Assembly (NCBI RefSeq): GCF_055900595.2
Contig: NZ_CM148325.1
Length of the DNA stretch: 64,000 bases
Strand: one strand, 5' to 3'
Part shown: positions 42,534-48,062 of the stretch, in pieces
Numbering within the stretch: position 1 is the first letter of the stretch
Layout: the number at the start of each line of letters is the position of its first letter
Program-made: the position numbers and the translations under genes
Notes under the pieces: generated by a model
Databases searched by the model: none
What the model saw: the letters and a program-made list of their open reading frames with translations, nothing else
Told to the model about the DNA's origin: nothing

Positions 42534-42554
42534 TTTTCATCATTGATATAAAAG

Positions 42555-42578
42555 GGCTGCCGACGGGCGGCCTTTTTT
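42555..42578 (+). terminator. glmS terminator hairpin, which is also the canonical Tn7 attachment position (unoccupied here)
   Basis: GGCUGCC-GACG-GGCGGCC stem (one G-U pair) followed by six U, about 22 bp after the glmS stop. No Tn7 ends or tns genes follow. Confidence 0.75.
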
Positions 42579-42838
42579 ATAAAGTGTATCAACGGTTTAT
42601 TATTGATGCACAAATTAATATAAATATATTCTGAATTATTGGTGATGTCCTATTACGCACTTGATTTTTTACTGTTTTAATAATATTTATATAATAAATT
42701 TATATTTAATTTCGCATAATTAATATTATTTTTAGATAAAAATACCCCTTTGGTGTACTATGCCTCTGAATCATAAAATCACTTATTAATTTAAGTTATG
42801 ATTTAGACTGAAGGATATATTATATCAATGGAGTTTGT

Positions 42839-43411
42839 ATGAAACGTAATATTATTGGCGGTGCAATTACGCTGGCATCTTTAATGTTAGCCGGAAATGC
42901 ACTTGCAGAAGATGGCGTTGTTCACTTTGTCGGTGAAATTGTCGATAGCACATGCGAAGTGACTTCCGATACCGCCGATCAAACAGTACCTCTTGGTAAG
43001 GTCAGTAAAAGTGCGTTTTCAGGAGTAGGCAGCCTGGCGTCACCACAGCAATTTAGTATTAAACTGGAAAATTGCCCAGCAACCTATACTCAGGCAGCCG
43101 TCCGTTTCGATGGTACTGAAGCACCTGGCGGAGACGGTGACCTGAAAGTGGGTACACCGCTGACATCAGGTACACCTGGCGATTTTACCGGTACAGGACA
43201 AGCGATTGCGGCAACCGGCGTCGGTATTCGTATTTTTAACCGGGCGGATAATTCTCAGGTTAAACTTTATAACGACTCTGCTTATAGCACAATCGACGCT
43301 GACGGTAAGGCTGAAATGAAGTTTATTGCACGCTATGTTGCTACCAATGCGACCGTAACGGCGGGTACAGCAAACGCTGATTCACAATTCACCGTCGAAT
43401 ATAAGAAATAA
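42839..43411 (+). CDS. lpfA: Fimbrial major subunit, type 1 pilin family (190 aa), lpfA-like
   Basis: Signal peptide, then the pilin N-terminal motif FVGEIVDSTCEV with a conserved Cys pair; first gene of a chaperone-usher operon between glmS and pstS. The lpf name rests on this location plus family resemblance, not on an alignment. Confidence 0.7.
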   Translation: MKRNIIGGAITLASLMLAGNALAEDGVVHFVGEIVDSTCEVTSDTADQTVPLGKVSKSAFSGVGSLASPQQFSIKLENCPATYTQAAVRFDGTEAPGGDGDLKVGTPLTSGTPGDFTGTGQAIAATGVGIRIFNRADNSQVKLYNDSAYSTIDADGKAEMKFIARYVATNATVTAGTANADSQFTVEYKK

Positions 43412-43458
43412 TTAATACAGGGCCTTTTTATTCAGTTGGCTTTGGCCAGGGAGTCGTT

Positions 43459-44190
43459 ATGTCCAGAAAAAGTTGTTTAATTAGGCTCTTTAAAACAACA
43501 ATTTCGTGTAATTTATTGAGGATTATTATTCTAAGCATCTTTTTCCTCCAGCCGACATTGACCTGTGCAGGTGTTGTCATTGGCGGTACACGGGTTGTTT
43601 ATTTGAGTAATAATGCTGATAAATCTATTTCTGTATTTAGTAAGGAAGAAAAAATTCCTTATCTCATCCAGGCATGGGTGGATCCGTTTAATAAAGATGA
43701 TAAAACTAAAGCGCCATTTATTGTTATTCCTCCGGTATCACGGTTAGAACCCGCGCAAGAAAAAATATTACGTATTGTCCACACTAAAGGTTTGTCATTA
43801 CCAGATGATCGAGAGTCTGTCTTCTGGCTAAATATCAAAAATATTCCACCCTCTGCGAGCAGCAAAGAAGCGAACTCGCTGGAAATCGCCGTTAAAACGC
43901 GAATTAAGCTTTTCTGGAGACCGGCATCTATCCGCATGATTCCCGAAGATGCCGCACCAAAGGTGAAGTGGCATCGGGAAGGCCGAAATCTTATTGCTGA
44001 GAACCCTAACCCGATTCATATCAGCGTGATGGATGTCATTGTTGATGGCCATGATGTACCTCTTAACATGATCCGCCCTTTCGAGACGCTCACGTTACCG
44101 TTGCCTGCTAATTCTTCGGGTAGCCAAATGACCTGGCGATTTATTAATGATTACGGTGCGATAAGCGAACCATTAAAGCAAGCGTTGTAA
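43459..44190 (+). CDS. lpfB: Periplasmic pilus chaperone, PapD-like (243 aa)
   Basis: Signal peptide then AGVVIGGTRVVY, typical of chaperone-usher chaperones; operon context. Confidence 0.72.
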   Translation: MSRKSCLIRLFKTTISCNLLRIIILSIFFLQPTLTCAGVVIGGTRVVYLSNNADKSISVFSKEEKIPYLIQAWVDPFNKDDKTKAPFIVIPPVSRLEPAQEKILRIVHTKGLSLPDDRESVFWLNIKNIPPSASSKEANSLEIAVKTRIKLFWRPASIRMIPEDAAPKVKWHREGRNLIAENPNPIHISVMDVIVDGHDVPLNMIRPFETLTLPLPANSSGSQMTWRFINDYGAISEPLKQAL

Positions 44191-44214
44191 GCATTGCATA
44201 AGGATAGGCGAATT

Positions 44215-46737: not shown

Positions 46738-46746
46738 AGGTTTTTT

Positions 46747-47820
46747 ATGAGAAATAATATTCTGTTGTGGTGTTTTTCTATTGTCGCCATTTTTTACACG
46801 AGTACGACTCTTGCGGCCCCTCAAGGTATCTGTACTCCGGATAATGGCGTTTTTCATAGTGTGCTTGATTTTCCTGGATATGTTATTACGGCAACTCAGA
46901 ATAAAGCGGGGTCCACATTTAATACAACAGTAACTAATGGCGGGTCTTATCCGGCACACTGTCACTGTAATACAGGAAAGGTCGGTGAATTTCCCTATAT
47001 TTACTACACGGCAAAAATAAATGATGCTTTAAGTTATGCTGGGGTTCATTCTAATGTAAATTACTATAATCTTAATCCACATCTGGATGTGGGTATAGCA
47101 ATTGATCTTTTGGGGGTCGGATTTGTTAATGCACCATTCGAGTATCATGCTAATGATCCTGATGTAACTACAGTATATAATTGTGGAAGAGAGGAGCCAT
47201 TAGATATTTCTAGTGGTGCCAAGGCTAAGGTTTATTTTTATATTAAAAAACCCTTTGCGGGAAAGGTAACTATTCCCACAACGCTTGTTGCGAAGTTGTA
47301 CGGAACTATCAGCCGTGACACACCGATTGATTATTCGCAGCCGATGGCTGATGTTTATGTTCGTGGAGACATCACTGCGCCACAAAGTTGTGAAATTAAT
47401 AGTTTACAGCCTATTAATTTTGATTTTAGTACTATTCCAGCCGCAGATTTTTCATCTGTTGTCGGGAGTGCTGTGTCAGCGCATAAAATCACCAAAACTG
47501 TCACTATTGAGTGTGAGTATTTAGGAATAATGAATACGGATGATATCACTACCTCTTTTTATGCTACTGAACCCAGTAGCGATAATTCGATGGTTGTAAC
47601 ATCAAACCCAAATGTAGGGATAAAAATCTACGATAAAAATAACAGGGAAATCAACGTCAACGGGGGCGAACTACCAACTGATATGGGAGCAACAAGCGTT
47701 ATTGGTGAGAAAGCTGGCAATGTAACTTTTTCTGCTGCCCCTGCGAGCCTCACTGGTGCACGACCCGCGCCAGGAACATTTACTGCTACGGCAACTATCA
47801 CCATCGAAATTGTTCGTTAA
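46747..47820 (+). CDS. lpfD: Fimbrial minor subunit / putative tip adhesin (357 aa)
   Basis: Signal peptide, two-domain size typical of tip adhesins, C-terminal pilin-like region; last gene of the operon. Confidence 0.65.
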   Translation: MRNNILLWCFSIVAIFYTSTTLAAPQGICTPDNGVFHSVLDFPGYVITATQNKAGSTFNTTVTNGGSYPAHCHCNTGKVGEFPYIYYTAKINDALSYAGVHSNVNYYNLNPHLDVGIAIDLLGVGFVNAPFEYHANDPDVTTVYNCGREEPLDISSGAKAKVYFYIKKPFAGKVTIPTTLVAKLYGTISRDTPIDYSQPMADVYVRGDITAPQSCEINSLQPINFDFSTIPAADFSSVVGSAVSAHKITKTVTIECEYLGIMNTDDITTSFYATEPSSDNSMVVTSNPNVGIKIYDKNNREINVNGGELPTDMGATSVIGEKAGNVTFSAAPASLTGARPAPGTFTATATITIEIVR

Positions 47821-47826
47821 TCAAAG

Positions 47827-47853
47827 GACAACGGTGCTCCTCGCACCGTTGTC
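47827..47853 (+). terminator. Perfect 11-bp stem-loop immediately after lpfD (no U-tract)
   Basis: GACAACGGTGC-TCCTC-GCACCGTTGTC; may act as an RNA-stabilising or terminating structure at the end of the fimbrial operon. Confidence 0.5.
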
Positions 47854-47955
47854 ATCAGACACCTCTTTCTAACCTATTTGCACATGACATAAAAGATGAC
47901 ATGGTTTTTCTTTTTGCCTGGTTATAAAAATCAATAAATTACGCATAAATCTCGT

Positions 47956-47998
47956 TGTGTCATAAAACTGTCATATTCCATACATATAACTGTCACCT
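47956..47998 (+). promoter_or_regulatory. Pho boxes of the pstS promoter
   Basis: TTGTGTCATAAAACTGTCATATTCCATACATATAACTGTCACC contains tandem CTGTCAT-type PhoB-binding repeats about 65-105 bp upstream of the pstS ATG. Confidence 0.85.
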
Positions 47999-48062
47999 GT
48001 TTGTCCTATTTTGCTTCTCGTAGCCAACAAACAATGCTTTATGAATCCTCCCAGGAGACATT

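Follow-up and report, generated by a model that had tools for sequence, protein, structure and literature searches.

What kind of pilus is encoded between glmS and pstS in a 64,000-nucleotide stretch of Escherichia coli DNA (contig NZ_CM148325.1 of assembly GCF_055900595.2, hereafter called the window), and how is it related to the fimbrial genes found at the same place in other enterobacteria? The interval in question, positions 42534-48062, holds four genes for a chaperone-usher fimbria, lpfA, lpfB, lpfC and lpfD, and we conclude with a probability of about 0.9 that they constitute an intact four-gene operon of the LpfO113 ('lpf2-1') type, the E. coli counterpart of Salmonella stgABCD. The operon is a real gene cluster and not a chance pattern. 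A preliminary description of the window, made from its letters, had placed between glmS and pstS a four-gene chaperone-usher operon with an AT-rich leader of about 300 bp, an intact usher of about 840 amino acids (aa) and about 240 bp ahead of pstS, and the map of open reading frames (ORFs) and Pfam find each of these features at the coordinates given, the three lengths being measured at 305 bp, 840 aa and 242 bp. The locus is laid out as follows.

40704-42533, + strand: glmS, the conserved anchor on the left (ORF map)
42534-42838, + strand: leader or regulatory region, AT-rich, 305 bp, 25.2% guanine plus cytosine (GC)
42839-43411, + strand: lpfA, major pilin, 190 aa
43459-44190, + strand: lpfB, PapD-like periplasmic chaperone, 243 aa
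44215-46737, + strand: lpfC, outer-membrane usher, 840 aa in a single uninterrupted frame
46747-47820, + strand: lpfD, predicted two-domain tip adhesin, 357 aa
48063-49103, + strand: pstS, the conserved anchor on the right (ORF map)

All four lpf frames are open and encode full domain sets, and the products include every component that defines the classical (gamma-type) chaperone-usher class, namely a two-domain PapD-like chaperone, a full-length usher, a pilin with a Fimbrial domain and a two-domain adhesin. Signal peptides head all four (for example, ...LAGNALA/EDG in LpfA and ...TSTTLA/APQ in LpfD). LpfA has the Pfam Fimbrial domain at residues 29-189 and a pair of cysteines, and its translation ends in ...TVEYKK, with a penultimate aromatic residue, and begins with an alternating hydrophobic stretch that fits donor-strand exchange. 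LpfB matches PapD_N (E = 3.6e-38) and PapD_C (E = 5.2e-10), and its translation shows two conserved chaperone motifs, GGTRVVY and FWLNIKNIP, with the Arg and Lys that anchor the subunits. PapC_N, Usher (E = 3e-186) and PapC_C all fall within the one 840-aa ORF of LpfC, the translation of which carries the N-terminal usher motif FNPALLE; this frame could start at TTG 44194 or at ATG 44215, and RefSeq takes the ATG, giving 840 aa. In LpfD the Fimbrial (pilin) domain covers residues 205-354, and the approximately 180 N-terminal residues, without a Pfam match, contain the putative receptor-binding domain (about residues 24-200). Compared by sequence with the LpfD of strain LF82 (PDB 5AFO), LpfD aligns over residues 34-355 (E = 4e-22; ~25% identity), and its AlphaFold2 model (predicted local distance difference test score 83.9) matches the fold of the same structure (E = 2e-23; template modelling score 0.67-0.70), the next fold matches being the tip adhesins PapG, FimH, CupB6 and CsuE. 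The model portrays LpfD as a tip adhesin resembling LF82 LpfD, with the two-domain fold common to both.

Judging from the family to which they belong, the four proteins would all be exported through their Sec signal peptides, after which LpfB would capture the subunits in the periplasm by donor-strand complementation. The usher LpfC would first recruit the complex of LpfB with the adhesin LpfD, and would then polymerise LpfA beneath LpfD by donor-strand exchange. Because the operon holds no adaptor subunit genes, the fibre expected to be assembled by LpfB and LpfC would be LpfD-(LpfA)n, with LpfD at the tip, and such a pilus would mediate attachment to host or other surfaces. In relatives, an lpfA2 mutant of O104:H4 showed less adherence to polarised Caco-2 cells (PMC4636846), and stg contributes to epithelial adherence in S. 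Typhi (PMC4494162).

It could be argued that these genes are a decaying, non-functional and cryptic operon, since many fimbrial operons of E. coli go unexpressed under laboratory conditions, the operon of some relatives has been hit by insertion sequences (IS4 in genome H39 and IS2 in the usher of genome H43), and disruptions affect the chaperone in O157 and the usher in S. Typhi. We consider this improbable given the four complete frames, with their signal peptides, full domain sets and signature motifs of chaperone and usher, and given non-coding blocks of the leader that are invariant across genera. Moreover, the ratio of non-synonymous to synonymous divergence (dN/dS) is 0.05-0.09 for lpfA-C and 0.08-0.24 for lpfD, and this overall range of 0.05-0.24 shows long-term purifying selection on lpfABCD. 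Decay of lpf is nevertheless ongoing in some lineages: IS4, IS2, IS5, IS1 and IS91 lie inside the operon in several genomes (H39, H43, H53, H78-H80 and H10), and an IS2 splits the usher of a 97.1% relative of the window allele.

The type of the operon can be established from annotation, family models and comparison with characterised loci. The lpf names that the preliminary description had adopted agree with those given by RefSeq, where the Prokaryotic Genome Annotation Pipeline (PGAP) labels a 99.9% identical locus (strain Z0117EC0005) as lpfA-O113, lpfB-O113 and lpfC-O113, the fourth gene being called only 'fimbrial protein'. In NCBIfam, curated cut-offs are exceeded by the pilin with NF011817 (380 vs 203 bits) and by the chaperone with NF011818 (502 vs 317 bits), the usher is under every equivalog cut-off, and the best model for the adhesin is NF011819, StgD, with 236 bits (cut-off 493), followed by LpfD with 128 bits. 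The Salmonella-type Lpf models are all missed (score/cut-off in bits: LpfA 93/221, LpfB 142/360, LpfC 742/1271, LpfD 128/412). LpfO113 itself, which is found in E. coli O113:H21 that produces Shiga toxin (STEC) and is negative for the locus of enterocyte effacement and in many B1/A strains, shares the glmS-pstS site, the four genes and their order, and the proteins of its common allele (representative L002) are 93.2% (A), 88.1% (B), 90.6% (C) and 78.2% (D) identical to those of the window, with only ~83% identity at the DNA level and 80-84% in the leader. The window LpfD, product of the most variable of the four genes, is homologous and syntenic with LpfD-O113, yet it belongs to a separate allele cluster. 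In the literature, lpf2 has four to five genes and the pilin gene of O113:H21 is of the lpfA2-1 type (PMC4636846). The preliminary description had made its naming depend on how the pilin and adhesin compare with Lpf variants; the expected closeness is there, at 93% and 78% to LpfA and LpfD of O113, although for the adhesin the best NCBIfam model is that of StgD. This ranking is to be expected and does not contradict the assignment, because in both position and phylogeny the Lpf of the E. coli glmS-pstS site corresponds to Stg of Salmonella (PMC3559732); a Stg hit is thus ill suited as a refuting condition.

For the same reason it is very unlikely that the operon should be regarded as a distinct fimbrial family, Stg, instead of long polar fimbriae, an opinion that could draw on the adhesin scoring 236 bits with StgD over 128 with LpfD, on the 93 bits reached with the Salmonella-type LpfA model (under its cut-off of 221), and on the labels stgA-D that adhesiomeR gives to these E. 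coli genes (PMC11184843). The question is one of naming and offers no biological alternative. Usher clade and locus are common to E. coli 'Lpf' and Salmonella Stg, as they are to E. coli 'Lpf-like' and Salmonella Lpf, both types being considered ancestral (Wurpel et al., PMC3559732); PGAP uses the names LpfA/B/C-O113; and LpfD also misses the StgD cut-off (236 < 493) and shares only 42-46% identity with its Salmonella-labelled matches (~46% for one labelled S. salamae, 42-44% for the others). The Stg operon of Salmonella enterica, the gene roles of which have been described (PMC4494162), has the same layout of pilin, chaperone, usher and tip adhesin at the same locus and with an usher of the same clade (PMC3559732); stgC of S. 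Typhi contains an internal stop (PMC4494162), whereas the window usher is intact. Lpf1, or Salmonella-type Lpf, is a pilus of the same class at a different locus, with five genes, lpfABCDE, and the window has no lpfE.

The preliminary description had also called for the glmS-pstS region to be compared across E. coli, and this comparison reveals a widespread and variable locus. In a megablast search of 5426 complete E. coli genomes, the O113-type operon (counted at 80% query coverage or more) was present in 1962 and the O157-type operon in 355, and in lpf-negative E. coli the spacer between the two genes measures 313 bp. An lpf operon between glmS and pstS has been reported in SE11, E24377A, SMS-3-5 and O157 Sakai (PMC2608844). 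On the left, the window departs from the K-12-type sequence at the first base past the glmS stop (42534), and on the right, similarity to lpf-negative E. coli resumes at the Pho boxes of pstS, at about 47957, so that by this junction comparison 5.4 kb stands in place of ~205 bp of K-12-type spacer. The GC content of the fimbrial cluster is 36-50%, against 52-58% in its neighbours, and falls to 25% across 42600-42899.

These boundaries bring to mind a recent mobile genomic island at attTn7 downstream of glmS: the operon sits exactly at the 3' end of glmS, the point of insertion for Tn7-like elements, K-12 lacks it, and its GC (41-49%) is below that of its neighbours. A Tn7 insertion point, which we take to be ~25 bp downstream of glmS, would fall within the glmS terminator of the inserted DNA itself (attTn7 region, 42534-42578). 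In strain 042, moreover, a Tn21-bearing element is reported to lie between glmS and lpfA (PMC2808357). A recent island is, however, scarcely credible, because the ORF map and a repeat search disclosed no transposase, integrase or tns genes, no terminal or flanking repeats and no target duplication at the operon, and because the same four-gene layout occurs at the same site in Citrobacter werkmanii, a Citrobacter sp., Pseudocitrobacter, Escherichia sp. E1V33 (O157-like), E. whittamii and another Enterobacteriaceae genome, as well as in Salmonella (PMC3559732), which together point to an old shared locus. The pattern is in keeping with an ancestral locus that many E. coli have lost and at which alleles are exchanged via the flanks, where synonymous divergence (dS) is raised, at 0.15-0.30. 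We therefore regard glmS-pstS as an old and positionally conserved fimbrial site in Enterobacteriaceae, the alleles of which are probably swapped when homologous recombination takes place in the conserved glmS and pst sequences on either side.

The least probable explanation, that the operon derives from the O157:H7-type lpf2 (OI-154) by loss of the fifth gene lpfD', can be dismissed, since it has in its favour the same chromosomal site and the same order of the first four genes, and has against it protein identities of only 56.5% (A), 62.7% (C), 40.1% (D) and 42.5% (D') to O157 lpf2 versus 78-93% to the O113 type, no megablast similarity to O157 beyond the pstS promoter, and the separation of the O113 and O157 types as lineages (1962 versus 355 genomes). 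These identities leave out the O157 chaperone, the gene of which is interrupted in the O157 record used; the genome in question carries at this site lpfA2, the chaperone in two fragments, an intact usher and two adhesin-like genes. The locus has the same first four gene roles as the window operon, and the preliminary description had seen two differences between them. The first, the lack of a fifth gene, is genuine, O157 and O55:H7 having an extra 3' subunit gene (PMC3559732) and the window operon having four genes against five. The second, the uninterrupted usher, turned out to be mistaken, as the O157 lpf2 usher is likewise one intact coding sequence of 2535 bp and the split usher, lpfC/lpfC', belongs to the lpf1 locus (gene list, PMC11184843). 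The suggestion of 'a distinct lpf variant or a related fimbrial type' was right in separating the operon from that of O157 (A 56.5%, C 62.7%, D 40%) and goes too far if a new fimbrial type is meant, the operon being a rare allele of LpfO113. As a side observation, the lpf2 chaperone of O157 AR-0428 (L004, 3519-4147) is annotated as fragments of 108 and 49 aa, and a deer isolate 98.9% identical to AR-0428 lpf2 has a single chaperone coding sequence; the O157 lpf2 operon may be chaperone-defective.

How rare is the window allele, and how far does it stand from the common one? It was detected in 18 of the 5426 genomes (0.33%), eight of which contain the window region at 99.9% identity. Identity of the O113-type operons to that of the window is bimodal, with 14 genomes at 97% or more, four at 93.6-94.7%, a handful at 86% and the rest at 82-84%. 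The same 18 genomes are also the best matches for a core segment 20 kb away (98.0-100%), for which all genomes outside the carrier group reach at most 97.3% (core divergence of about 2.7%; strain 042 is among the closest of these), and we take this coincidence to mean that the allele marks one rare lineage. Relative to the common allele (L002), dS amounts to 0.62 in lpfA, 0.83 in lpfB and 0.96 in lpfC, and in lpfD it is saturated (1.9 against L002 and 1.29 against L003); dN/dS is 0.05-0.08. A dS near 0.9 is about the level seen between E. coli and Salmonella. The divergence spreads into the flanks, with dS values against other E. coli of 0.25-0.30 in the 3' part of glmS and 0.15-0.24 in pstS, and with identities down to 90-94% in windows of 200 bp to 1 kb, as compared with ~99% in the atp operon just upstream. 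Such raised divergence is consistent with linkage to, or hitch-hiking with, an old or imported fimbrial allele. Origin of the whole window from a divergent Escherichia clade was considered and is insufficient, the core differing by ~1-4% from typical E. coli versus ~17% in lpf.

Within the lineage, lpfA and lpfD form a mosaic of their own: genome L009 has A, B and C at 98-99.6% to the window and D at 89%, and in genome L006 the figures are 89.5% for A, 97.6% for C and 84% for D. Within LpfD, non-synonymous divergence of the N-terminal domain is 1.6-2.6 times that of the pilin domain, and because dS is higher in the N-terminal domain too, we attribute this to recombination of old variants and do not take it as a demonstration of positive selection. 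In a large protein database, LpfD of Escherichia falls into at least twelve clusters, 70-87% identical to the window LpfD, and the exact window LpfD and LpfA are found on 396 and 677 contigs, respectively, under generic names only. As LpfD falls outside the curated cut-offs and the LpfD-O113 name, and its putative receptor-binding domain appears to be the most diverged part, its receptor may differ from that of the characterised relatives. In sum, the window allele is a rare and deep one ('clade II') that has become fixed in a single minor lineage of E. coli, and its pool, for lpfB-D, recurs across the genus boundary in Pseudocitrobacter vendiensis.

The link with the latter came from an usher scan of one genome per species, which returned a 340-kb contig of the P. 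vendiensis type strain with the layout glmU-glmS-lpfABCD-pstSCAB; the cross-genus comparison covers three Pseudocitrobacter loci. Nucleotide identities between this contig and the window are as follows.

Upstream: glmU 82.5%, glmS 86.2%, leader 71.8%
Operon: lpfA 86.7%, lpfB 92.3%, lpfC 96.6%, lpfD 90.5%
Downstream: pstS 86.1%, pstC 87.8%, pstA 88.2%, pstB 89.1%

At the protein level LpfC is 97% identical between the two. In P. vendiensis, lpfC matches each of the three alleles of the rare E. coli lineage at 97-98% identity and the common E. coli alleles at 84-86%, and for lpfD the figures are 99% with E. coli MFDS1022581 and 73-77% with the common alleles; against the group of window alleles as a whole, lpfC ranges over 96.6-98.4% and lpfB over 92-95% nucleotide identity. 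A congener (GCA_029335625.1) has the same locus layout and flank proteins 99-100% identical to those of P. vendiensis, but its fimbrial proteins are only 83, 74, 80 and 44% identical (A, B, C and D). The exact P. vendiensis LpfD occurs also on an independent assembly, ENA ERZ27336787, which is 96.8% identical to the type strain across 14 kb, and in this assembly lpfC shares 98.4% identity with E. coli L006 and lpfD 99.1% with L009, while identity to E. coli is 86-88% in the pst genes and the upstream synteny is not that of E. coli, with a pectate-lyase-like gene beside glmU. The same pattern in a second independent assembly, with a synteny foreign to E. coli, makes an assembly chimera unlikely.

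The simplest reading of these sequences is that the resident operon was replaced by homologous recombination across genera and that both hosts would share one allele pool. An origin on the Escherichia side is mildly favoured, as the identity of the clade to the common alleles of E. coli (~85%) exceeds that to the other allele from Pseudocitrobacter (74%), and it could also be that the E. coli lineage and P. vendiensis were both recipients from an unsampled donor. Extending this to the site as a whole, we lean, with only slightly more than even confidence, to the view that glmS-pstS is a trans-genus site of allele exchange, in which diverged cassettes, and especially the adhesin, are maintained side by side and moved via the housekeeping flanks without a mobile element, the window allele being an import or a donor with a receptor specificity unlike that of LpfO113.

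The non-coding DNA around the operon contains three further features.

42550-42578, + strand: intrinsic terminator of glmS, hairpin with U-run, within the inserted DNA (free energy -21.6, z -4.9)
47827-47853, + strand: strong hairpin with an 11-bp stem directly 3' of lpfD (free energy -20.3, z -5.7), with no U-tail on the + strand
47957-47996, + strand: Pho boxes of the pstS promoter, retained at the right edge of the inserted DNA

The glmS terminator of the inserted DNA differs in sequence from that of K-12, and across all alleles the hairpin is kept at the same position with differing sequences. The hairpin after lpfD, which together with the Pho boxes and no fifth subunit gene occupies the 242-bp spacer before pstS, is likely an operon-end terminator or an mRNA-stabilising hairpin. 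Past the glmS terminator the leader has 22% GC, and three of its blocks stay unchanged all the way from E. coli to Pseudocitrobacter: TATATTCTGAA (42625-42635), TTGGTGTACTATG (42750-42762) and GGATATATTATATCAATGGAG (42813-42833). The last of them contains a 6-1-6 palindrome, GATATA-T-TATATC (42814-42826), that abuts the lpfA Shine-Dalgarno sequence GGAG (42830-42833), and in one genome the centre base of this palindrome is altered with both arms kept. The conserved blocks are candidate regulator or promoter elements, and the palindrome is possibly a regulator site or a translational element. A reasonable guess, drawn from base composition only, is that the leader is most likely a silenced, H-NS-type promoter region that is conditionally expressed. 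A sigma-70 scan of the leader gave 10 matches versus 12.6 expected from shuffles, hence no enrichment; the best match to a Fur box there has six mismatches, equalled in 171 of 500 shuffles; pap-like GATC sites are absent from the leader, and no Rfam family matches inside 42534-48062. Two further candidates were discarded. The sole inverted repeat of the leader (42598-42630 and 42693-42725; 33 nucleotides, 79% complementary), a conceivable invertible switch, is AT-rich low-complexity sequence with no recombinase nearby and was taken as chance, and a hairpin between lpfA and lpfB, examined as an attenuator, is no better than shuffles (z -0.86).

Some features of the window lie apart from the operon. 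Downstream of phoU the K-12-type segment bglGFBH-yieLK-cbrB is missing, and positions 52630-60071 hold three large genes instead: 53049-55568 (+ strand), named 'type III effector protein' by RefSeq; 56038-57225 (- strand), a pentapeptide-repeat protein; and 57478-59925 (+ strand), hypothetical. None of the three reaches an NCBIfam cut-off, and the single PADLOC match among them, to an AAA-ATPase, is weak (E = 0.0015); O157 likewise carries a hypothetical gene of 794 aa past phoU. A ribosomal RNA operon with a spacer transfer RNA and two distal ones occupies 7343-12566 (- strand), the equivalent transfer RNAs of the annotated reference being Glu, Asp and Trp. The mioC-mnmG interval, site of oriC, was placed at about 28.36-28.74 kb through synteny with the annotated reference, and a match to the small RNA STnc410 lies between atpC and glmU (38931-39088, - strand).

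Several points weigh against the assignment of the operon to an intact and working LpfO113 type and against the account of its history given here. LpfD is under the NCBIfam cut-offs of both StgD and LpfD and is not named LpfD-O113 by PGAP. Every function ascribed to the window allele would be by homology. No promoter was localised, the top sigma-70 site (42668-42695) being without conservation in the other alleles, and AT-richness is the one property from which silencing by H-NS is presumed. Finally, the transfers between E. coli and Pseudocitrobacter, putative in their direction and number, are drawn from three Pseudocitrobacter loci.

Weighing these points, we hold to the interpretation of the operon as an intact LpfO113/Stg-type locus, a kind of operon that is already known and the sequence of which is public and largely named by RefSeq. 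Cross-genus sharing and rarity leave the kind of system unchanged. What appears to be undescribed is that the allele belongs to a rare and deep lineage whose adhesin is not covered by the LpfD-O113 definition, and that its lpfB-D share an identity of 92-99% with Pseudocitrobacter despite flanks diverged by ~15%. Pili of the Lpf/Stg type are implicated in gut colonisation by STEC, enteroaggregative and avian pathogenic E. coli, and lpfA alleles serve as typing markers; allele-specific PCR, or gene-presence tools based on the common allele, may hence miss or mislabel the lineage that carries the allele described here. The near-identity of lpfB-D with those of Pseudocitrobacter would offer a clean natural example of adhesin cassettes crossing genera by flank-mediated homologous recombination and not by mobile elements.

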